From the IMG/VR virus record IMGVR_UViG_3300046517_002090: DNA of 34,757 bases, one strand, 5' to 3'. The notes under the pieces were generated by a model that saw only the letters and a program-made list of their open reading frames with translations, did no database searches and had not been told where the DNA came from. Origin of the DNA: a virus. Positions 1 through 34,757 of the stretch are shown here, in pieces; the first letter of the stretch is position 1, and each line of letters starts with the position of its first letter. Position numbers and translations under genes: made by a program.

Positions 1-127
1 ATAGTGCTTGTGCCATTATTAATCCCCGTCCCACCATATATAGGACTAATAATTGTTGCATTCCAAACACCTGTAGTAATAGTTCCAACTGTTACTAAAT
101 TAGGTAAAGCAGTTACAGCAGATGTAA
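1..127. repeat. Terminal overlap, copy 1 (identical to 34631..34757); circularisation signature
   Basis: Base-by-base comparison shows 1..127 equals 34631..34757 exactly. The repeat lies inside a coding sequence that stays in frame across the junction. Confidence 0.97.
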
Positions 128-7940: not shown

Positions 7941-10064
7941 TTACCTCGGCGTTGTGGCTTTAAATTCTTCATAGAACTTCTCAAATCTAAATCCGAATGT
8001 ATTGCTAAAATCGAACTTATACTGACGTTGCCGTCCATTCGCACGAGTTTCAACTTTTTGTGTAAGAGCAGTAATAGGATATGGGCCAAATATGCGTGCA
8101 CTAGCTTGGCTATCATATTCCTTTGTATTAATAGACATATTAAAGAGAACTTCAGTATTAGTATCCCCGTCTACTTCTTCATTTATTGGCAATAATGCTA
8201 CGCTTGGCACGACACGTAGAATTTCTTGCATAAAATCGCCTTCAGCAATTAATGAATAATTAGATAATAAGCTACCTGTCATATTATTACCATTATCAGC
8301 AAAGTTTCCATCTATCTCATGATGGTATAAAATAGTATCTAATACCGGATCACATTGCCCAAATGCCATATATTGTGCTCTACTTATATTAGTCGGCTCT
8401 TCTGATGCAGTACGGGATAATTTACCATTAGTCAAATGTCCTTCTTGCCAATTCCATATGATATAATTATCTGGTTCTTCAGATTCATCAAATGCTGCAA
8501 ACCACCAAACTTCATTAAATGCGATCGATTTATGTGCAAAACTATGATATGCACTATTAGAGTTGATGCGATTATAAAACCATTCATTGAGCGTATTATT
8601 AGGTATAATGGTTACAACAGAGCCATTATACGCATATAGATTGCTTTGACCTGCCCAAACAACATTATCTTGCACTGAACTAGCAGCAGAAGGTCCTAAT
8701 AGACCATCTGAAGACATAACATCTTCAATAAGCCAGATTGCCGGCGCTCCTACAAAAGTCATTTTATGAACACTATTGCTTGTAAAGATTAAATGTTGTC
8801 CTTTACAATATTGACTAGCTATAAGTCTTGTAGCATTGGTGACAGTACCATTGAAGAATAGAATATTAGGATCTTTTGTCCAATTAGTTATATCGCTGGT
8901 AGATAATATATTATTCACCACCCCGGCAGCTCCGAAGACTACTATTTGGTTATTCATCACTGACACATAATTAATCGCAGTCGGAGCGCTTCCAGCAGTT
9001 TGTAATGCTGGGGCAGTAGCTACATTACCAGCCCATAAATATAACCCTCCTTGATCGCCAGGTGTAAGCACTATATTGCTGCCGAATTTATCCATAGACC
9101 AAATGCGCGGGAGTGTGAATGTACCTACAGTAGAAGGTCTAGGAGTACCATAAGTTAATGCGCCATAAAGACCCATCCCATATCCTAGTGCTTGATTATA
9201 CTTACATGCTCCTGCTAGAATTTGGCCTTGCACTGTAGTTCCTGCCCCTCCTGCAGCAGCCGCAGCAGAAGTAGCAAAGTTTCCTGAAGAATCGGCGGCA
9301 GTTGAATAATATGCATAATCATTGGCATCAAGAACTCTTATTACTGCTTCTATATTTATATCGCCCACAGCAAATCCGCCGAAAGCCACAGCGCCCAAGA
9401 TTTTTATCCTATCCCCATCTGCAAAACCATGAGCTACATGATTTACTGAAATCACCCTAGTAGCTAAAACAATGGCTGCGCCTCCTCCACTACCTGTTGC
9501 ATTCGCAATTGCTACTGCTGCATAAGTAAGTGTGCCACCTATAGAATCTACTGTTGCCACTGTAAAAGTGCCATTAGGATTGACGCCATTCAAAGGATTA
9601 GTGGCACCGGAGATTTTTATTATATCTCCTCTTTGAAATAATTTGGGAGAAATAGCTCCAAGTGTTAATGTAACTATTGAAGAGCCATTAGTTGTAGCTA
9701 ATACATCTGCAGGTAATGGTGAAAAATAGTTAGTCGATAAGCTATTCACAATCGGTGTTGTAGCTGTTACAAGAGGTGTAATGTTATATAATGAGCCTTT
9801 TGTAACGCTATAGAGTCTTGTATGCGTGCCAATTAGTATATTCTCTACACCTAGAGCATCAACATATGCCCAAATTGTGCGTGGTACACCATTTAGTACC
9901 TGACCATTTAAGAATCCAACACTATCCCAGCCACCTATTTTTTGTGGGTAATATTTATAGAAACGTATCTTATCAGCATCATTCCATTGAAAGGAGGTAT
10001 ATGCATTATCATCTTTGTTTACACCTGGTGGGATAGTAATAGGACTACGTTTCGCAGTAAGCAT
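7941..10064 (-). CDS. Large tail structural protein (707 aa), tail tubular B / nozzle-like by position
   Basis: ORF track. Size and position resemble T7 gp12. TAATG-type 1-nt overlap with the upstream gene at 10064. Confidence 0.5.
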   Translation of the reverse strand: MLTAKRSPITIPPGVNKDDNAYTSFQWNDADKIRFYKYYPQKIGGWDSVGFLNGQVLNGVPRTIWAYVDALGVENILIGTHTRLYSVTKGSLYNITPLVTATTPIVNSLSTNYFSPLPADVLATTNGSSIVTLTLGAISPKLFQRGDIIKISGATNPLNGVNPNGTFTVATVDSIGGTLTYAAVAIANATGSGGGAAIVLATRVISVNHVAHGFADGDRIKILGAVAFGGFAVGDINIEAVIRVLDANDYAYYSTAADSSGNFATSAAAAAGGAGTTVQGQILAGACKYNQALGYGMGLYGALTYGTPRPSTVGTFTLPRIWSMDKFGSNIVLTPGDQGGLYLWAGNVATAPALQTAGSAPTAINYVSVMNNQIVVFGAAGVVNNILSTSDITNWTKDPNILFFNGTVTNATRLIASQYCKGQHLIFTSNSVHKMTFVGAPAIWLIEDVMSSDGLLGPSAASSVQDNVVWAGQSNLYAYNGSVVTIIPNNTLNEWFYNRINSNSAYHSFAHKSIAFNEVWWFAAFDESEEPDNYIIWNWQEGHLTNGKLSRTASEEPTNISRAQYMAFGQCDPVLDTILYHHEIDGNFADNGNNMTGSLLSNYSLIAEGDFMQEILRVVPSVALLPINEEVDGDTNTEVLFNMSINTKEYDSQASARIFGPYPITALTQKVETRANGRQRQYKFDFSNTFGFRFEKFYEEFKATTPR

Positions 10065-25328: not shown

Positions 25329-25574
25329 ATGTCCAGAACACTAAAAGAACCGACTTCTTGTAGATCGATAAGAATGAATGCACGTACAATCAGTAGGTTA
25401 ATGGCAGCGAGTAGATATTTTTGTTGCCCACCTGGAACTTTAATATCTTTATTATTAGATGCTACCAGACTTTCAGCGATCAAGAACTCTAACATTCCCG
25501 ATGAAATTGTATCTAATTTCTACAAGGAAGTACAGGGCTATGCGGATACAGAGACATATTTATTTAAGGATTGA
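25329..25574 (+). CDS. Hypothetical early protein (81 aa; alternative start at 25374)
   Basis: ORF track. Its stop overlaps the exonuclease start region. Weak SD AGGT. Confidence 0.3.
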   Translation: MSRTLKEPTSCRSIRMNARTISRLMAASRYFCCPPGTLISLLLDATRLSAIKNSNIPDEIVSNFYKEVQGYADTETYLFKD

Positions 25575-25576
25575 TC

Positions 25577-26503
25577 ATGGCGCTTACAATACAACAACGT
25601 ATCGACCGTAGATTAGGCGTTGGTGGCTCCGATATCGCAGCTATCTTAGGCATTAGTAGGTATAGCACTCCTCTTGATATATATTTAGAGAAGCTTTCTA
25701 CAGATGAACCCCAAGATAGCGTAGATAACCAGTTTATAGAGTGGGGCAACCGCTTAGAATCAGTCATCATAGAGAAGTTTGAAGATCTAACAGGTATCAA
25801 ATGCGCTACGGGACTTGATACTTTTATTCATCCAACATATACTTATATGAGAGCTAACATTGATGCGAAGTTAATAGGTGAAAACGCTATACTGGAATGT
25901 AAAACAGCTGGGCAATTCGCTAGTAAGGAATGGTCTACACTTGGTGGAGATAATATTCCTGAGCCTTATTTACTGCAGTGCGCTTATTATGCTGAAATTA
26001 CAGAATGCACTAAAGTATATATCGCGGTACTTATAGGTGGTAATGACTTTAGAATATATAGTTATGATCGTAATCCTGCTCTTGGCAAGCTTATTGTTGC
26101 CAAGGTCGTAGACTTTTGGGAAGGACATGTTTTAAAACAAATTCCACCAGATCCCATAAATCACGAAGATGCTCTAAAATTATGGCGCACCACAGAATCA
26201 GATGAATTGAGATTAGCCACTGATGAGATTCTAGACGTACTGAAAGAAGTACGTTCTTTGAAAGCTGATAAACATAATATAGAAGTCCAACTAGGCCTAA
26301 AGCAAATGGAGTTATATAATTTCATGCAATCAGCTCAACAGATCAATTCTCAAAGCGGTGATCCATTAGTAACTTGGAAAATGCAATCTAGCAAACGCTT
26401 CGATGCCAAACGCTTTATGATCGAACATCCAGAGATGTATAATCTATACATAAAGACTTCAGAAACACGCGTATTAAGAATTAAAGGAGATAAGAATGAT
26501 TAG
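25577..26503 (+). CDS. YqaJ-family (lambda Exo-like) recombination exonuclease
   Basis: GVGGSDIAAILGISRYSTPLDIY..., ANIDAKL...ILECKTA (PD-(D/E)XK) and YLLQCAYYAEI. ATG 25577 has SD AAGGA 6 nt upstream. The track start at 25571 is TTG. Confidence 0.8.
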   Translation: MALTIQQRIDRRLGVGGSDIAAILGISRYSTPLDIYLEKLSTDEPQDSVDNQFIEWGNRLESVIIEKFEDLTGIKCATGLDTFIHPTYTYMRANIDAKLIGENAILECKTAGQFASKEWSTLGGDNIPEPYLLQCAYYAEITECTKVYIAVLIGGNDFRIYSYDRNPALGKLIVAKVVDFWEGHVLKQIPPDPINHEDALKLWRTTESDELRLATDEILDVLKEVRSLKADKHNIEVQLGLKQMELYNFMQSAQQINSQSGDPLVTWKMQSSKRFDAKRFMIEHPEMYNLYIKTSETRVLRIKGDKND

Positions 26504-27098
26504 GACTCCAAAGCAAATTGAGAGCCAAGTTGTAAAGGATTATAATGATGGAATGAAATTCAAAGACATCATCTCCAAATATCCTTTAGGGCATTCCACG
26601 ATAGATAGCATCTTAAAAAGAAATAAGGACATGGTGATTAAGAGGAAAGAGATCAATACCCCTCTTATTAGGTTTATGAGATCTTACATAGATAATGGGA
26701 TAGACGAATGCTTCATTTGGAATGGGCAAAGATTTAGAAATGGATATGGCCGCTTTGAAGTAAAAAAACGTTACTATTTAGCACATAGGATTTCATATGA
26801 GCATTACTATGGATATAAGCCATTGCCAAAAGAGGTAGTAATGCATAAATGCGATAATCCGTGCTGCGTTAACCCTTTGCATCTAGCACTTGGCTCACAA
26901 AGCGATAATATCCAAGATATGCTTAACAAAGGTAGAGCTGCTTTTGGTGAGAAGGCCAATAGAAAAAAGCTTAAAGTTGCTGATGTACTAGAGATACGTA
27001 AATCTACCGATACACAAATAGCTTTGGCAAAAAAATATAATGTTAGCAGAGCTGCTATATACAAGATTAAAGCAAACAAAAACTGGAGATACTTATGA
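26496..27098 (+). CDS. HNH homing-type endonuclease with flanking HTH modules
   Basis: CFIWNGQRFRNGYGRF...AHRISYEHYYG...VMHKCDNPCCVNPLHLALGSQSDNIQDM (HNH_3-like). ATGA overlaps with both neighbouring genes. Confidence 0.8.
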   Translation: MIRTPKQIESQVVKDYNDGMKFKDIISKYPLGHSTIDSILKRNKDMVIKRKEINTPLIRFMRSYIDNGIDECFIWNGQRFRNGYGRFEVKKRYYLAHRISYEHYYGYKPLPKEVVMHKCDNPCCVNPLHLALGSQSDNIQDMLNKGRAAFGEKANRKKLKVADVLEIRKSTDTQIALAKKYNVSRAAIYKIKANKNWRYL

Positions 27099-27937
27099 GT
27101 AATATTACAAAAACAGAAACATTTTCTTTCGTGCCTAGGAATTTAGAAGAGGCGATGAAATATGCTGAAATGATGTCTAAAAGTCAATTGGTTCCTAAAA
27201 GCTATCAGACTAAGCCTGCAGATATATTGATAGCTGTACAAATGGGCATGGAACTAGGCCTCAAACCCATTCAATCCCTGCAAAACATCGCAGTAATCAA
27301 TGGCAAGCCTTGTATCTATGGTGATGCATGTATGGCATTAGTAAAAATCCATCCTGAATTTGAAGATGTAACAGAACACTTTGATGAATCCTTGCAAGCT
27401 GCTATCTGTAAAGTAAAACGCCGCGGTCAAACCGTACATACTAGTGTCTTTACCATAGAAGATGCAAAGAAAGCCGGCTTATGGAATAGACAAGGGCCAT
27501 GGACTCAATACCCAAGACGTATGTTGCAAATGCGTGCCAGAGGCTTTGCGTTAAGAGATGCGTTCCCTGATGCGCTACAAGGATTGATACTTGCTGAAGA
27601 AGCTCATGATCATCCACGCGAAGTAGAAACTATAGGAGAATCAAAGACTTACACTTCCACTACTGAAAAACTCATCGCAAATCTAGGATCAGCAAAACAT
27701 ATGCCAATTCCTGAAGATGCAATAATCCAAAGTGACCCAACTAATGGAGTTATAGTAGAAGCTGAAATTATGCCCGAAGTCTCTCTAGCTGAACAGCTCA
27801 CTATACTTATAGATGATAAAGCGGTGCCGATAGAAGTTATACAGAAGTGGCTTAGCAAATCTGGTGTAGCTAAACTATCGGATATGTCAGATGAAGATTT
27901 AACCAAGTGCATTGCGTTTGTGCATGAGAAGTATTAA
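27095..27937 (+). CDS. recT: RecT-family single-strand annealing protein
   Basis: ...MSKSQLVPKSYQTKPADILIAVQMGMELGLKPIQSLQNIAVINGKPCIYGDA... is typical of RecT. Paired with the YqaJ exonuclease. Confidence 0.8.
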   Translation: MSNITKTETFSFVPRNLEEAMKYAEMMSKSQLVPKSYQTKPADILIAVQMGMELGLKPIQSLQNIAVINGKPCIYGDACMALVKIHPEFEDVTEHFDESLQAAICKVKRRGQTVHTSVFTIEDAKKAGLWNRQGPWTQYPRRMLQMRARGFALRDAFPDALQGLILAEEAHDHPREVETIGESKTYTSTTEKLIANLGSAKHMPIPEDAIIQSDPTNGVIVEAEIMPEVSLAEQLTILIDDKAVPIEVIQKWLSKSGVAKLSDMSDEDLTKCIAFVHEKY

Positions 27938-27948
27938 AAGAACAAACT

Positions 27949-28038
27949 GGAGAGGTGGCCGAGTGGTTTATGGCTGCAGTCTTGAAAACTGCCGTATGGG
28001 CAACCGTACCGTGAGTTCGAATCTCACTCTCTCCGCCA
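27949..28038 (+). tRNA. tRNA-Ser: tRNA-Ser (anticodon UGA), class II, CCA encoded
   Basis: Manual fold. Acceptor GGAGAGG/TCTCTCC. 3-bp D stem GCC/GGC. Anticodon stem GCAGT/ACTGC with loop CTTGAAA. Long variable arm GTATGG-GCAA-CCGTAC. T arm GTGAG-TTCGAAT-CTCAC. Discriminator G plus CCA. Confidence 0.85.
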
Positions 28039-28042
28039 AATT

Positions 28043-28480
28043 ATGGAAAAGTATATGAGTGATAATCAATATCGTCTTAATAGAAAACACAAAATAGAGC
28101 TTAGCAAATATGAATATCAATATTTACTAGAATATTTAGAAGCCATGAAGAATATCTTTTTACAATGCAAGGTGCATCCTGCAAGACTTGGCGATGTAAT
28201 AGATGTGATTCAAGCAATTAGAGCTAATACATATGAGATAGAGCAGCCGATTCAATGCAAGGAAATAATCATTGATAAAGATACTGTGAAAGCGGCCCTT
28301 CCTGAAACTGGTTATCTAAGACAAGCCCAAGTCTTAAGATTAATACCTGTAGGTAAAAGCACATGGTGGAATGGTATAAAGTCAGGTCGCTTTCCGAAAG
28401 GAGTGAATCTAGGTGGCAGGGTAACTGCTTGGAAAGTAGAAGACATTCGAGAATTAATAGAAAAGCTTAACAATCAATAA
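28043..28480 (+). CDS. AlpA-like (excisionase/regulator-type) HTH protein with an N-terminal extension (145 aa)
   Basis: The C-terminal ...YLRQAQVLRLIPVGKSTWWNGIKSGRFPKGVNLGGRVTAWKVEDIRELI matches the AlpA / prophage CP4-57 regulatory family pattern. Confidence 0.6.
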   Translation: MEKYMSDNQYRLNRKHKIELSKYEYQYLLEYLEAMKNIFLQCKVHPARLGDVIDVIQAIRANTYEIEQPIQCKEIIIDKDTVKAALPETGYLRQAQVLRLIPVGKSTWWNGIKSGRFPKGVNLGGRVTAWKVEDIRELIEKLNNQ

Positions 28481-28494
28481 CTTAGGAGATTGAA

Positions 28495-28716
28495 ATGAAG
28501 CCAAAATTTGCATGTCGATTTTATGATAATGATTCGGTAGCATATGTTAAATATACTTATACTCTCAGAGCTGGGTGTACAGATAGTTATGAAGAACATA
28601 GAGAAATCTTTTTTACACAATTAGGCTCTAATAGGACGTTTCAAAAATATAGCGAAGTGATTATAACTAAAGGCGACTATAAAAAAGCAAAAGCTAATGA
28701 GATTATAATTTTATAA
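28495..28716 (+). CDS. Hypothetical protein (73 aa)
   Basis: Strong SD AGGAG lies 6 nt upstream of the ATG. Confidence 0.55.
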   Translation: MKPKFACRFYDNDSVAYVKYTYTLRAGCTDSYEEHREIFFTQLGSNRTFQKYSEVIITKGDYKKAKANEIIIL

Positions 28717-28733
28717 TTATCAATAACTTAGAT

Positions 28734-28757
28734 CATTTTGTCGGCGCCGACAAAATG
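28734..28757. terminator. Perfect 24-bp palindrome CATTTTGTCGGC|GCCGACAAAATG
   Basis: Seen directly, 17 nt after the stop of 28495..28716. Could be a terminator or a protein-binding site. AAAATGGTTC recurs at 28786-28795. Confidence 0.5.
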
Positions 28758-28773
28758 GTTCTCCACCATCTCC

Positions 28774-28801
28774 TTGACGCCACGAAAATGGTTCATATAC
28801 T
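28774..28801 (+). promoter_or_regulatory. Promoter TTGACG-16-TATACT immediately upstream of the ankyrin gene
   Basis: Hexamers at 28774..28779 and 28796..28801. The predicted start site coincides with ATG 28808, so the mRNA may be leaderless. Confidence 0.45.
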
Positions 28802-28807
28802 TAATTT

Positions 28808-29254
28808 ATGATTCCAATACATGGGTACTTCTACATGATTGAAAAAACTCCATTAATGCTCGCTGTTACTAAAGGAGCTCTTTTTGATGTATATAATTTA
28901 TTAGAAAATGCAGTGGATATTCATACTTTTGACTTGAATGGTAATACAGCTTTACATCATTGCATTATGACTCCTCAAGGAAGCATAGGAGCAAGATTAA
29001 GTCTTAAAATCTCTGGTTTGCTCATACAATATGGCGCCGATCCAAATGATCGCAATATCAATGGGTTAAGCTGTTACGATCTATGCGATTCGAATGCTTT
29101 TAAAACTTTCATAGAAAACTTACATGAAGATTATAGAACGCAATTAGCTTCTACTAATATTCCCTTATCTAAGGTGGGTTCTAAATTACAAGGATTAGAG
29201 AATATTAAGATGTCGTCGCATCAGGAAGAAAGGATTATCTTCTTTAGTCAGTAA
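28808..29254 (+). CDS. Ankyrin-repeat protein (148 aa; alternative start at 28835)
   Basis: TPLMLAVTKGALFDVYNLLENAVDIHTFDLNGNTALHHCIM ... LLIQYGADPNDRNINGLSCYDLC are ANK repeat signatures. Confidence 0.75.
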   Translation: MIPIHGYFYMIEKTPLMLAVTKGALFDVYNLLENAVDIHTFDLNGNTALHHCIMTPQGSIGARLSLKISGLLIQYGADPNDRNINGLSCYDLCDSNAFKTFIENLHEDYRTQLASTNIPLSKVGSKLQGLENIKMSSHQEERIIFFSQ

Positions 29255-29312
29255 TGTAATTATTACATCAAGTAAAGTCCTTAATGTAATTTGGTGCGTT
29301 TTTTACATTAAG
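29254..29312. terminator. Two AT-rich hairpins sharing a TAATGTAA motif, 3' of the ankyrin gene
   Basis: ATGTAAT-T-ATTACAT (29254..29268), and CTTAATGTAA-(13 nt)-TTACATTAAG (29280..29312). Confidence 0.45.
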
Positions 29313-29450
29313 CAATAGGCCGGAATTGCACCGGCTAGATATGTCTTAGGACGGTAGGCTTGCAAAAGGGCAACCGTATCATATCTCGTTAATAGCTCAC
29401 TTTTCTTAGCCTTTCCACTTATGCGCTTCTCTGTCAGCACCGCTATTGCT
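29311..29450. ncRNA. Structured GC-enriched intergenic element (strand unknown)
   Basis: Closing helix AGCAATAG/CTATTGCT (29311..29318 with 29443..29450). Hairpin GCCGG-7-CCGGC (29319..29335). Long hairpin GATATG...ACGG...TTGC-AAAAGG-GCAA CCGT...CATATC (29338..29385). No ORF. Lies between convergent genes. Confidence 0.3.
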
Positions 29451-29502
29451 ATAGTTAAGATATACTAATTCAAGCTACTTAGGAATTATTTATGACTAGG
29501 TA

Positions 29503-29733
29503 TTATTTCTCTATTTCATCTTTAAGACTTTCTACAACCGCTTCAAAATGCGATGCACTAATAATCGTCACATACTTTCCATCACTATTAGATCCTTTGC
29601 CAAGAAATATTATGGGTTCATCATTGGCTAATATAGGCATATCTTGATCTAGCTTCTGTAGAGTCTCGATCATTCCTTTAACGGTTGGAGTAGTATTCAT
29701 TGTATTTTCTATAAGCTCAACTTGATCAGTCAT
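29503..29733 (-). CDS. Hypothetical small protein (76 aa)
   Basis: SD AGGAG lies 5 nt upstream. Monocistronic, between hairpins. Confidence 0.55.
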   Translation of the reverse strand: MTDQVELIENTMNTTPTVKGMIETLQKLDQDMPILANDEPIIFLGKGSNSDGKYVTIISASHFEAVVESLKDEIEK

Positions 29734-30049
29734 TATTTCTCCTAAATATTTAACTCTAATAATAGATTAGAGATTAGTTTCTATTCTATATACTACATCT
29801 AGCATAATACTAATATATTCGAATAGACCTCTTTACAATTATGAGCAATCTATTTCCTATCGAATTCCACTCTCACTATAAAATAACACATCTCTATATC
29901 CGAAACCAGTTGCCGAAACAGAAAGTGTGTGATACATTGCCAAAAGAGGTTACGGATACAGATATAAGCGACGCTGACTTGGATGGGTACAATCTAAGAT
30001 GCCATATGGAACTTTGGCTTATTTCATAACACTCTACAAGCTTGGCTGT

Positions 30050-30119
30050 TGGTATATAGTTTAATTGGTAGAATGGTGCTTTTGAGCACTAGATGCGAGT
30101 TCGAGTCTTGCTGTGCCAA
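30050..30119 (+). tRNA. tRNA-like gene (70 nt) with canonical acceptor, D and T arms but a shortened, non-canonical anticodon arm; identity unclear (UUU/UUG-like)
   Basis: Acceptor TGGTATA/TGTGCCA (two G.U pairs). U8. D arm GTTT-AATTGGTA-GAAT with A14, G18, G19 and A21. T arm GCGAG-TTCGAGT-CTTGC. Discriminator A. The anticodon region GGTGCTTTTGAGCACT folds only as 6 bp + UUUG, 5 bp + 6-nt loop, or 4 bp + 8-nt loop. Flanking CTGT/ACAG extends the acceptor helix to 11 bp (30046..30122). Confidence 0.5.
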
Positions 30120-30144
30120 CAGTTTTAACATTTAGGAGAAAGAA

Positions 30145-30408
30145 ATGATCGATACACATAAAGAAATTATATTTTTAGTAAAAGAACGGAAATGGAAACA
30201 AGATAAAGCTGAGGATGTTGTGAATCTTTTTCAACGTCAAGCTGAGAAAGGGTATGAGAGTTTGGCTACTAAAGCTGATCTGGCAGACCTTAAAGGAGAA
30301 ATAAAAACCTTGAATATGAAGATTACAATGTTTATGTGGTTTATCGCAATAGTAGTGGCTCTATTAGAATGTGCACCATATATCATGAAAATTGTGACTA
30401 AGGGATAA
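30145..30408 (+). CDS. Coiled-coil protein with a C-terminal TM helix (87 aa; DUF1640/XhlA-like)
   Basis: SD AGGAG upstream. ...LATKADLADLKGEIKTLNMKITMFMWFIAIVVALL... Its stop is 2 nt before the recombinase ATG. Confidence 0.6.
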   Translation: MIDTHKEIIFLVKERKWKQDKAEDVVNLFQRQAEKGYESLATKADLADLKGEIKTLNMKITMFMWFIAIVVALLECAPYIMKIVTKG

Positions 30409-30410
30409 TA

Positions 30411-30974
30411 ATGAAAATAGGCTACGCACGCATCTCCACCAAAGATCAAAACCTCGAAGGCCAAATTGAGACTTTAAAGCAAGCTGGCTGCGATAGAATC
30501 TTTAGCGAACAAGTATCTGGGCGTAAAGCCCGGATGCCAGAATTTGATAACTGTATGGCGTTTCTACGTGAGGGAGATTCTTTAGTAGTAAGGCATATAG
30601 ACCGGCTTAACCGCGGCACTCTAGAATTGCTTATGCTATATGAAGAGTTAAAGCAACGTAAGATAACGCTCATATCGGTACTGCAACCTGTGGATTTTAG
30701 TGATCCTACGCTAGGCAAACTTTTCTTCCAGATCTTTAGCATGTTCGCTGAATGTGAACATAACATTGCTTCAGAACGGAGCTACGATGGTATGATGAGA
30801 GCTAGGGAGCGTGGCGGCCCACATGGACGACCACCTAAATTAACTCCAGAAAAACAAGGTTTGCTATGTGATGCATATCAGACTAAAAAGCATACTATAA
30901 AGGAGCTAGCCCGCATGTTCGATGTAGGCACTTCAGCTATAATGCGATATACACAGGAGTTTAGACATGGATGA
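30411..30974 (+). CDS. Small serine recombinase, Gin/Hin/Cin invertase-like (187 aa)
   Basis: MKIGYARISTKDQNLEGQ (catalytic Ser motif), DSLVVRHIDRLNRG, and GRPPKLT followed by a C-terminal HTH (IKELARMFDVGTSAIMRY). Confidence 0.85.
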   Translation: MKIGYARISTKDQNLEGQIETLKQAGCDRIFSEQVSGRKARMPEFDNCMAFLREGDSLVVRHIDRLNRGTLELLMLYEELKQRKITLISVLQPVDFSDPTLGKLFFQIFSMFAECEHNIASERSYDGMMRARERGGPHGRPPKLTPEKQGLLCDAYQTKKHTIKELARMFDVGTSAIMRYTQEFRHG

Positions 30975-31224
30975 AGAATTTTCAGAAGAAGAAATTGCCG
31001 AAATAAATGAAGCTTGGGAATCAATCGCTAATGATAGAATGGGAATGGATCTTGCTATTTTATTATCAGTACAAAGTATCGCAAGATTTCAGACAAACTT
31101 GAGTATCTCTCATAAAATAATACAAATGGAAGTTTGGATGGAAGGAATAAAATGTTTACGAAATACTTTAAATCGCTCAATGCCTTCAAATCAGGAGGCA
31201 TCAGATGATCAAGAAATACACTAA
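30967..31224 (+). CDS. Highly acidic small protein (85 aa)
   Basis: ORF track. Overlaps the recombinase stop by 8 nt. MDEEFSEEEIAEINEAWE... and ...EASDDQEIH. Confidence 0.55.
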   Translation: MDEEFSEEEIAEINEAWESIANDRMGMDLAILLSVQSIARFQTNLSISHKIIQMEVWMEGIKCLRNTLNRSMPSNQEASDDQEIH

Positions 31225-31513
31225 AACACAAAAAGAAGCTCTAAATGCTTTTAAAACTTATATCACATCATTAGAATATGGATCTACCTTTGCTGCATTA
31301 GCTAGTATGCAGATCAAAATGTATACTGAAGATATGAATGATGAAGAAAGTCTAGATTTAATGAAAATATGGTGCGGCGCATTTATGGAGTTAATGTGCA
31401 ATTTAATACATGATGATTTCGAAGAGGATTTCGGATCTTTATTGGATAATATGAGTGATGCTTTTCCAGAAGATTTCCGTAAAATCTCATTGAAAGATAC
31501 AAAATTGCATTAA
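31205..31513 (+). CDS. Highly acidic small protein (102 aa)
   Basis: ORF track. D/E-rich (…EDMNDEESLDL…HDDFEEDFGSLLDNMSDAFPEDF…). Confidence 0.55.
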   Translation: MIKKYTKTQKEALNAFKTYITSLEYGSTFAALASMQIKMYTEDMNDEESLDLMKIWCGAFMELMCNLIHDDFEEDFGSLLDNMSDAFPEDFRKISLKDTKLH

Positions 31514-31551
31514 TCATGATCCATGCAATAACATTACTAGGAATGGCGATC

Positions 31552-31566
31552 ATATACTTAGTATAT
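31552..31566. terminator. Palindrome ATATACT-T-AGTATAT between convergent operons
   Basis: Seen directly. AT-rich, and lies between 31513 (+) and 31578 (-). Confidence 0.3.
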
Positions 31567-31577
31567 AAAGGCTGCAA

Positions 31578-31913
31578 TTAACCTGAAGGCTGTAATGTAC
31601 AAAATAAAGAGGTGCCGCCTGCTGAACTCGATTGTACAGCGCGGATTTGGTCGTCATAAACCATATCTTCAATAAAAAAGATTCCTGCAGCTGTTGCGCT
31701 CACAAGTGTACCATTGCGATCTTTAAGAGGAATCCATGTATTTGCTGAGAGATTTGTAGGAGCAGCAACTTGTAGAGCAATTGTCGCTCCTGCAAACGTA
31801 CCAAATATTTTAACGCAGGCTTTATGATTAGGAAAACTAAAGTTTTTCACCGCAGAATTAGCATCTGTTGTTTGTGTGTTAAACAATACGATGGTATCTG
31901 CAGGCGAAGCCAT
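31578..31913 (-). CDS. 111-aa small beta-rich protein, paralogue B of 1043..1378; last gene of the late operon
   Basis: See 1043..1378. SD AGGT upstream. Confidence 0.7.
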   Translation of the reverse strand: MASPADTIVLFNTQTTDANSAVKNFSFPNHKACVKIFGTFAGATIALQVAAPTNLSANTWIPLKDRNGTLVSATAAGIFFIEDMVYDDQIRAVQSSSAGGTSLFCTLQPSG

Positions 31914-33522: not shown

Positions 33523-34757
33523 TTACGCATGAATCTCCTGCACTATAATAGAACTTGCGGTTCTTGGGAATCCACCAGTATTTGTATCGGTTATTGAAGC
33601 ATTAATAGCTACTGCAGCCGCGCCAGAAACTGACAAGTATTGGATTTTGTATGTTGTCGCTGATGTTGTAGCAGGCGAATCTAAGAATACAACTGTACAA
33701 CTATTCATGCCAGAAGCAGAATTCACATTACTTGAAGCAGAACCTGCAGTTCTTGAGCCAACTGATGTACCAATAGAAATTGCTGTAGAACCACGGACTA
33801 CTTGTATTATTGGTGATGTTGTTAAATTACTGGACATTTGTAAACTTGCCGTGACTAAAACGGTACTTGATGCAGATGTTGGTGTTATTGTTACTGAAAG
33901 ACCAGCTGCATCTACATATGAACTCGATGAAGTAGTTAATGGCGTTGTTAAAACCGTACTAATAGTCTGTACTACACTACCAGTAATACCATTATCCCAT
34001 GTCGCATCCCCCATCCAAAATGTATTAGCCGAAGCATTTGTACCTGAATTTAAATTTGCTACAGGGAGATTGCCAGTAACACCATTAGCTAGATTAACTT
34101 GTGCCCATGCTGGATTATTAGTAGTGCCTGTATTAGATAAATATCTCGTAGCATTAGTATCTTTAGCAAGCATCGTAAGTACATTAGTAGCTGATCCATA
34201 GATTAAATCACCTTGAGCTGCAGTTGAAGGATGGGTAAGAGTAGACCAAGTCGGTGCTGCTGTTGCTCCAGATAATAATAATTGTCCTGCTGTTGCAGTA
34301 CCTGAGAGAATTGCGCCTGCTGATCCAGTTGAATAGAATATACCACCATTACTTGCAGTAAGATTGGCATTTGTACCACCTTTTGCAAGTGGTACGAGGT
34401 TATTATAAGTAGTAGCATTACCTACACTTGTCACATCACCTGTCATATTGGCATTTGTAGTGACAGTTGCAGCATTACCTGTAATACTTATATTCCAAGT
34501 CCCAGTTGCTCCAGTCCCTGTAGTTGGTACAAGTGTAGTAGTTCCCGCTGGTAGTGTTGCATTAGTGGTTGCTGTCGATGTTAGAGTAGTACTAAAAGCA
34601 CCGCTAGTAATAAGGTTGCCACCAAGAGTGATAGTGCTTGTGCCATTATTAATCCCCGTCCCACCATATATAGGACTAATAATTGTTGCATTCCAAACAC
34701 CTGTAGTAATAGTTCCAACTGTTACTAAATTAGGTAAAGCAGTTACAGCAGATGTAA
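33523..34757 (-). CDS. Tail fibre protein, 3' part of the junction-spanning ORF. The M at 34446 in the track is internal.
   Basis: The open frame continues upstream of 34446 to the window edge in the same phase as 1..1043. The sequence is T/S/G/A/N-rich and contains [15 protein letters not shown]. The C-terminal ~150 aa is beta-rich and knob-like. Confidence 0.85.
34631..34757. repeat. Terminal overlap, copy 2 (identical to 1..127)
   Basis: Same as copy 1. The unique genome length is 34,630 bp. Confidence 0.97.

Follow-up and report, generated by a model that had tools for sequence, protein, structure and literature searches.

The recombinase gene and its operon

The virus record IMGVR_UViG_3300046517_002090 of IMG/VR is a stretch of phage DNA of 34,757 nucleotides (the window hereafter, meaning the whole stretch that was analysed) in which a gene for a small serine recombinase adjoins the tail-fibre genes. 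The open reading frame (ORF), 30411–30974 on the plus strand, encodes 187 amino acids with a catalytic domain, a GRPPKLT arm and a C-terminal helix-turn-helix (HTH). A first-pass annotation had recognised in it the signature of the small serine invertases (GYARISTKDQ, DRLNRG, and GRPPKLT followed by an HTH), and all of these elements are present. The Pfam Resolvase domain (PF00239) matches residues 3–136 at 1.9e-36, HTH_7 matches residues 139–181 at 8.9e-4 with 19.8 bits, under its gathering score of 23.8, and the protein falls in PHROG 125, 'DNA invertase', at 1.9e-51. Its best match among solved structures is Gin (4m6f, 7e-30), in an alignment that extends through residue 178. Identity to Mu Gin is 37% by BLASTP, and the bit scores are 107 for Gin, 80 for Sin and 63–66 for the Tn3 and gamma-delta resolvases; identity to ORF14 (Int) of phiRSM1 is 31%, below that to Gin. 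Residues R7, S9, D64, R65, R68 and E122 are invariant in an alignment of seven family members. The length is that of small serine recombinases (approximately 180–210 amino acids, a catalytic domain plus a short C-terminal HTH) and rules out a large serine integrase of the phiC31 or Bxb1 kind (> 400 amino acids, with zinc ribbon and coiled coil), while the NCBIfam models XisF and CcrB match the N-terminal catalytic part alone, far under their cut-offs. Judged by its sequence, ORF 30411–30974 is a catalytically intact small serine recombinase, nearest to the Gin/Pin invertase group. Gin of Mu, Cin of P1, Pin of e14 and Hin of Salmonella share with it a length of approximately 190 amino acids, the Ser9 nucleophile, the GRPPKLT minor-groove arm and the HTH, and are its best sequence matches, at only approximately 37–40% identity.

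The recombinase gene is preceded by a gene for a coiled-coil protein of 87 amino acids with a C-terminal transmembrane (TM) helix (30145–30408, plus strand) and followed by genes for two acidic helical proteins, Ac1 (30967–31224, plus strand; 85 amino acids, pI 4.3), the start of which overlaps the recombinase stop (ATGGATGA), and Ac2 (31205–31513, plus strand; 102 amino acids, pI 4.6). The spacing of these genes (a 2-nt gap, an 8-nt overlap and a 20-nt overlap) fits one operon. The operon is closed by a hydrophobic mini-ORF of 21 amino acids (MIHAITLLGMAIIYLVYKGCN; 31516–31581, plus strand), which overlaps the stop of the convergent, 111-amino-acid last gene of the leftward tail/tail-fibre operon (31578–31913, minus strand). 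From the recombinase stop to the stop of that tail gene there are 604 bp, in agreement with the approximately 600 bp first estimated. The genes and order of the five-gene arrangement described earlier, which comprised a tRNA-like gene, the coiled-coil TM gene, the recombinase and the two acidic proteins, are as stated; the mini-ORF had been missed, and the unit is only partly kept in related phages. The mini-ORF is retained in the relative L091 with mostly synonymous changes, and its coding sequence explains a 10/12 dyad at 31504.

Ac1 and Ac2 are paralogues (hhalign 90.7%, E 1.3e-6) that share a C-terminal hydrophobic-His motif. Neither matches any family or structure in Pfam, NCBIfam, PADLOC, PHROG or PDB, and a search for homologues of the acidic proteins returned the identical protein alone. 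Single-sequence AlphaFold gave a low-confidence three-helix model for Ac1 (pLDDT 68) and a poor model for Ac2 (pLDDT 52). We know of no co-translated acidic partner proteins in the Gin, Cin, Pin or Hin systems. PADLOC gave no match of note for the neighbours of the recombinase in the operon, which fit no known defence family.

A fixed and constrained gene of an uncultured podophage lineage

Seven close recombinase clusters with 56–99% identity served as relatives and their contigs were compared. The recombinase occupies the same locus in the same orientation in 13 phage contigs (the window, L091, L002, L006, L009, L092, L093, L094, L171, L176, L179, L180 and L198), of which some are partial and the full-length ones measure 30.5–36.8 kb; the lineage is one of uncultured podophages with P22-type portals. 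In all of them the gene stands at the end of the rightward arm of early/accessory genes, behind those for YqaJ, RecT and ankyrin, and faces the end of the leftward tail-fibre operon. The 111-amino-acid tail gene (31578–31913) is the conserved neighbour that fixes the locus; it has 52–80% identity across all relatives and is always convergent with the recombinase operon. Small serine recombinases are also found at the late/early junction of two more distant podophages, L194 (portal 64%, recombinase 42% identity) and L195.

Of the five-gene arrangement, the 13 contigs share without exception only the recombinase and its position. Most relatives have one or two acidic partners, usually translationally coupled to the recombinase, L198 has none, and the overlap of the recombinase stop with the start of the next gene is retained in nine of the 10 relatives compared. 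The coiled-coil TM protein belongs to a variable paralogous family ('MIDT...ATKxDL...TM') with only weak matches to PHROG 3556 and DUF4407; its members number zero to three per relative and lie on either side of the recombinase, and in L091 the orthologue of the window gene comes after the acidic genes. Direct repeats of 140 bp and 80% identity flank the recombinase and its acidic gene in L002. Further upstream the accessory genes vary, and include ParE/RelE toxin–antitoxin, RNA polymerase alpha-CTD-like, methyltransferase, ankyrin and dGTP diphosphohydrolase-like genes. Pairs of the ParE/RelE type lie upstream of the operon in two relatives (L002, 8341–8813; L094, 8527–9107). Proteins with an RNA polymerase alpha C-terminal domain are encoded in five relatives (L002, 9189–9593; L006, 7151–7843; L009, 8465–9040; L171, 990–1541; L091, 7898–8521), and this gene has been lost from the window.

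Compared with L091, the recombinase gene has 88.3% DNA identity, with 66 nucleotide differences of which 58 are in third codon positions, and only two amino acid changes (99% amino acid identity); between the same two genomes Ac1 has 62% and Ac2 45% protein identity. This pattern of substitutions indicates that the recombinase is under strong purifying selection.

Search for an inversion substrate

The first-pass annotation had read the gene as an orphan invertase beside the tail-fibre module, on the fibre-switching logic of Mu and P1. It had found by eye no crossover site of the AAACC-NN-GGTTT type, and a systematic search agrees: TCAAAACCNNGGTTTTGA has no match in the window at up to three mismatches, and AAACCNNGGTTT at up to one mismatch has two matches in the genome versus 0.8 expected, neither of them paired. 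Half-sites resembling gix occur at chance level (11 versus 8.3 expected). Dyads of 12-2-12 form number six versus two expected and none is conserved. When the genome was compared with its own complement, the longest non-local exact inverted repeat was 16 nt, in low-complexity coding sequence, with no significant long repeat; extended inverted pairs across the genome were all of 33 nt or less and 70–89% complementary. No inverted pair of crossover sites was found in the 34.6-kb genome, nor near the gene in eight relatives. The lack of an opposed fibre cassette, also first remarked by eye, was likewise borne out: the tail genes lie on a single strand throughout, the plus-strand ORFs within the fibre genes overlap intact minus-strand genes, and the repeats in the fibre genes are direct only, none inverted.

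One inverted repeat stands out at the locus. Its 21-nt arms, at 29733–29753 and 30124–30144, are complementary at 18 of 21 positions; the left arm covers the leader and ribosome-binding site of a leftward gene of 76 amino acids and the right arm those of the coiled-coil TM gene, and between them they bracket 370 bp that contain two tRNA-like elements. The arms are each other's sole match in the genome within six mismatches, and none of 20 shuffled sequences reached three mismatches. The repeat is missing in all relatives, where the best inverted matches have 6–8 mismatches, and it therefore cannot explain a recombinase that is present throughout the lineage. Seven assembled contigs from different samples belong to this phage, and all were collinear; four independent ones span the repeat, all in one orientation and with 100% identity to the window. 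Contig L190 has three mismatches at its start, and these do not fit the other arm. Pairwise comparison of 12 related contigs showed full collinearity, with no inverted block within approximately 10 kb of the gene.

The likeness of the locus to Gin-type systems thus lies in a phage-borne gene that adjoins tail-fibre genes; unlike them, the window has neither inverted 26-bp crossover sites nor invertible alternative fibre ends. Sites, invertible segment and orientation variants are absent here and in every relative, and since these defining features of an invertase system were tested and are absent, a tail-fibre invertase is not supported. Inversion of a promoter or of the whole block, which had been offered as another possibility, gains one window-specific inverted repeat and finds no orientation polymorphism. 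As far as consensus assemblies can show, in which a minority orientation would be missed, DNA inversion by this recombinase is excluded.

tRNA-like elements at the head of the operon

The tRNA-like element at 30050–30120 (plus strand) is called 'tRNA-???' by ARAGORN and scores 48.5 bits against the Rfam tRNA model. It is probably derived from tRNA-Gln, and the version in L176 is called tRNA-Gln(UUG). The anticodon arm folds as a 7-bp stem closed by a UUUN tetraloop or as a 5-bp stem closed by a 6-nt loop (five of five close copies), so that the 7-nt anticodon loop of a canonical tRNA (U33, anticodon, purine 37) is lacking; a usable anticodon loop is absent, and the element cannot decode. Among the relatives, the variable position of the tetraloop can be any of G, C, A and U. 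Leader and trailer stretch the acceptor helix to 11 bp (30046–30124) and CCA is not encoded. The fold has a z-score of −4.4; 92.6% of cells are paired, five pairs have changed on both sides and none of 500 shuffles scored as high, and the copy in L093 carries a compensatory stem change. The element was detected at the head of the operon in eight of 12 relatives scanned and went undetected in L002, L009, L171 and L198. It might serve as a processing signal, as a decoy or as the partner of a protein.

A second element with a cloverleaf-like four-way fold lies just upstream (29945–30035, plus strand). The window and the distant relative L093 both preserve it, with three compensatory pairs, and it has no Rfam match; the corresponding position in L091, L006, L092 and L094 is occupied by a 'tg' tRNA-like gene with the 6-nt loop AUUGUA. 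The 62-amino-acid ORF at 29841–30029, taken earlier for a gene, lies over this conserved structured RNA element and is probably spurious and not a gene.

Lifestyle and recombination functions of the phage

The first and last 127 bp of the window (1–127 and 34631–34757) are an exact direct terminal overlap, which makes it a circular assembly with a unit of 34,630 bp. The absence of an integrase, remarked on at first reading, held for tyrosine integrases among the ORFs scanned; no transposase was found among them either, and ORF 30411–30974 is the sole site-specific recombinase found there. Integrated prophages were sought through both the recombinase and the portal and none was seen, a negative that falls short of proof. 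Among the best 80 of 552 relatives in GTDB species genomes none had a recombinase of more than 45% identity, and all contigs of the recombinase family are of 37 kb or less. The 86 portal relatives (26–100% identity) in a set of 5.8 billion proteins were on contigs nearly all of 28–40 kb, the largest being 64 kb. PLSDB contained no related plasmid, merely remote portal matches. When viral and metagenome contigs were scanned with the 3′ half of the tRNA-like element for a host tRNA gene or attB, only phage copies and unrelated tRNA-Asn arrays were returned.

Candidate protein-binding sites near the recombinase

Four TTAATGTAAT-type motifs, alternating in orientation, cluster at 29246–29315, after the ankyrin gene and 1.1 kb upstream of the recombinase. 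One pair is spaced by 1 bp and one by 13 bp, and four of the 13 genome-wide matches to the motif fall within 60 bp. The cluster recurs at the matching position in L091, L006, L092 and L180 (five genomes with the window), 1–3 kb from the gene, and is missing in L002, L009, L093, L094 and L171; it is possibly a protein-binding array. The upstream motifs TTTCCTA and TTTCCTATAGGAAA were tried as a common site and set aside, as they appear to reflect homology of promoter regions. Individual relatives have repeats of their own. The spacer upstream of the operon in L009 (9361–9500) contains the iteron AACCTACCCACCCC five times, one copy inverted; L171 has three copies of the iteron TCCTATTTTCCTA at 1678–1720, unrelated to those of L009; and L093 has a perfect 26-bp palindrome at 8195–8220, upstream of the recombinase operon. 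These could be origins, operators or recombination sites.

What reaction does the recombinase carry out?

The reading that we favour, at a probability of only about 0.3, is that the enzyme uses a single site of the phage's own genome, for either dimer resolution or cyclisation. The recombinase would join one site per genome with its copy on a second genome unit; in one outcome it would monomerise circular dimers arising from replication and from the phage's own RecT recombination, and in the other it would cyclise a terminally redundant genome after injection. The acidic partners might modulate the enzyme, which is speculative. We favour this reading because the enzyme is the sole site-specific recombinase found in a phage that has never been seen integrated and that assembles as a circle, and because RecT is encoded by the phage itself and addiction modules by some relatives. 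The YqaJ/RecT pair would generate multimers, and in this respect the two relatives with ParE/RelE modules adjoining the locus resemble plasmid-like replicons, which often have such modules. The proposed one-site-per-replicon job is that of Cre/loxP of P1, of TnpR of Tn3 and gamma-delta, and of Sin, beta and RP4 ParA. The resolvases among these share the protein superfamily of the window recombinase, whereas Cre belongs to the tyrosine recombinases; a res with several subsites can be recognised beside resolvase genes, and none was found in the window. As to Tn3 and gamma-delta in particular, in which a transposase is linked to the resolvase, no shared motif cluster lies within 1.5 kb of the gene and the scanned ORFs include no transposase.

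Several observations weigh against dimer resolution and cyclisation. Searches near the gene and across the relatives yielded no nameable res-, lox- or att-like site, and such searches would miss sites that are weakly symmetric or specific to a subgroup. A comparison of 10 genomes up to 1.5 kb from the gene yielded, apart from coding motifs, a single dyad or repeated 10-mer common to at least five, which is the extended acceptor stem of the tRNA-like element; the 12-2-12 dyads vary from genome to genome, and nothing directly upstream of the recombinase start codon is conserved across relatives. The scores given above place the enzyme closer to invertases than to resolvases (Gin 107 bits versus Sin 80 and Tn3/gamma-delta 63–66). 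No partition genes and no lysogeny repressor were detected among the scanned ORFs. The circular assembly may result from headful packaging and terminal redundancy alone, a plasmid-like state of the phage is unproven, and why a lytic phage packaging its DNA from concatemers should need a resolvase is not obvious.

The enzyme might instead integrate the phage into a host tRNA gene. The Int of the Ralstonia filamentous phages phiRSM1 and phiRSM3 is a serine recombinase of the resolvase/invertase type, and their attP is 13 nt of a tRNA-Ser gene that adjoins int (PMC4471427); like the window recombinase it is a small enzyme, the sole recombinase, and has tRNA-related sequence next to it (PMC4471427). 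On this model attP would be the element at 30050–30120 or the tRNA-Ser gene at 27949–28038, with directionality set by the AlpA-like protein or by the acidic proteins. No non-coding sequence near the gene is better conserved than the tRNA-like element, which is also the sole shared dyad there; an AlpA/excisionase-like ORF is present (28043–28480), and the scanned ORFs yielded no other integrase. The position agrees too, as this locus lies where the tail genes meet the early arm, which is where int and attP are found in many temperate phages. Integration nonetheless seems improbable to us: no integrated copy was seen and the metagenome scan gave no host tRNA junction; L002, L009, L171 and L198, in which the element went undetected, all keep the recombinase; and identity to phiRSM1 Int is less than to Gin. 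Moreover, the tRNA-like element is a complete structured unit, unlike the 13-nt att core of phiRSM, and it is conserved as a whole, not in one half, with compensatory changes of the RNA type. A wider form of the idea, in which the tandem tRNA-like elements are functional partners of the recombinase, serving either as attP or crossover site with the acidic proteins as directionality factors or as RNAs that regulate or guide the enzyme, is one to which we would give little weight.

Equally little weight would fall on a true invertase that acts on a small segment, the 370-bp block at 29754–30123, in which the operon promoter would lie and whose flipping would switch transcription away from the recombinase operon and towards the leftward 76-amino-acid gene. 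The sequence is closest to Gin, the 21-nt repeat is the only one of its kind in the genome and exceeds all 20 shuffles, and because both arms are gene leaders either orientation would keep an intact ribosome-binding site. Gin and Hin carry a Fis enhancer in the 5′ part of the recombinase gene, and here third-codon identity rises to 0.50–0.65 in codons 1–20 versus approximately 0.4 elsewhere, a pattern that constraint on the translation start would give as well. The arms are, however, unlike gix or hix and have no internal 12-2-12 dyad, and the collinearity of the four spanning contigs and of the 12 relatives speaks against any flipping. Somewhat less doubtful, if still unlikely, is that the recombinase mobilises or shuffles cargo, such as the coiled-coil TM genes and further small cassettes, in a hypervariable 'moron' hotspot that it marks and services, or else that it acts on host DNA. 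Nowhere do these genomes vary more than in the block around the gene, the coiled-coil TM paralogues switch sides of the recombinase between relatives, and the direct repeats of L002 enclose the recombinase with its acidic gene. In the RADS of bacterial genomes and metagenomes, small serine recombinases are linked to variable defence cargo, and mobilisation has been postulated (PMC13552941). The resemblance lies in a hypervariable region where a small serine recombinase shares its transcript with small accessory genes that evolve fast; the difference is that the window recombinase is a fixed core gene of its phage lineage, and the published link is correlative and concerns bacterial chromosomes, not phage genomes (PMC13552941). 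In addition, the rearrangement junctions fall in the homologous 5′ ends of paralogous genes and are thus accounted for by ordinary homologous (RecT) recombination, no specific short site bounds the cassettes, and PADLOC gave no match of note.

Other features of the genome

The structural module on the minus strand is of the podophage type, with small and large terminase, portal (PHROG 156, P22-type), major head protein and tail/fibre genes. The tail-fibre gene of 716 amino acids spans the ends of the window (33523–34757 plus 128–1043) and is intact in the source contig. The 111-amino-acid gene at 31578–31913 has a paralogue at 1043–1378 (42% identity), each of the pair closing one tail-fibre sub-module; all relatives share the duplication, with a third copy in L198.

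The rightward arm (25571–31581, plus strand) carries genes for YqaJ exonuclease, HNH endonuclease and RecT, then tRNA-Ser, AlpA-like and ankyrin genes and the recombinase operon. The HNH endonuclease (26496–27098), between the YqaJ and RecT genes, has an HTH of the resolvase type. The tRNA-Ser(UGA) at 27949–28038 is a real tRNA, and is followed directly by the AlpA/excisionase-like ORF (28043–28480; Pfam 5.3e-7, PHROG 66). A perfect 24-bp palindrome (CATTTTGTCGGCGCCGACAAAATG) at 28734–28757, with a 71% direct copy 33 bp downstream, lies just upstream of a 10/12 sigma-70-like promoter (28774–28801) that precedes the ankyrin gene; it looks like an operator. A non-coding block of approximately 140 nt (29312–29450) has 89% identity to L091 8582–8720, above that of its surroundings, and no Rfam match; in L091 the RNA polymerase alpha-CTD-like gene is inserted right beside its counterpart.

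At the nucleotide level the window had no match among phage database records. Its nearest cultured phages have portal identities of 29% or less, and the matches include a Megaira 'ankyphage'. The ankyrin genes, the G+C content of 38% and the weak links to symbiont phages are only a hint that the host is an intracellular or protist-associated bacterium.

Significance

The recombinase adds a member to a known enzyme family. The label 'DNA invertase' on phage genes is usually taken to mean tail-fibre switching, and for this lineage the label is probably wrong, because a constrained enzyme occupies a fixed locus and an inversion substrate was found in no member. If the enzyme resolves, cyclises or integrates the genome, the roles of small serine recombinases in tailed phages would be extended, and a compact new recombinase/site pair might be obtained. 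Should the tRNA-like elements be its partners, a tailed-phage lineage would be using a Gin-like enzyme and a tRNA-shaped element together in some reaction that is not inversion. The tRNA-shaped RNAs without an anticodon loop and the acidic partner proteins are, in any case, uncharacterised elements of interest in their own right.

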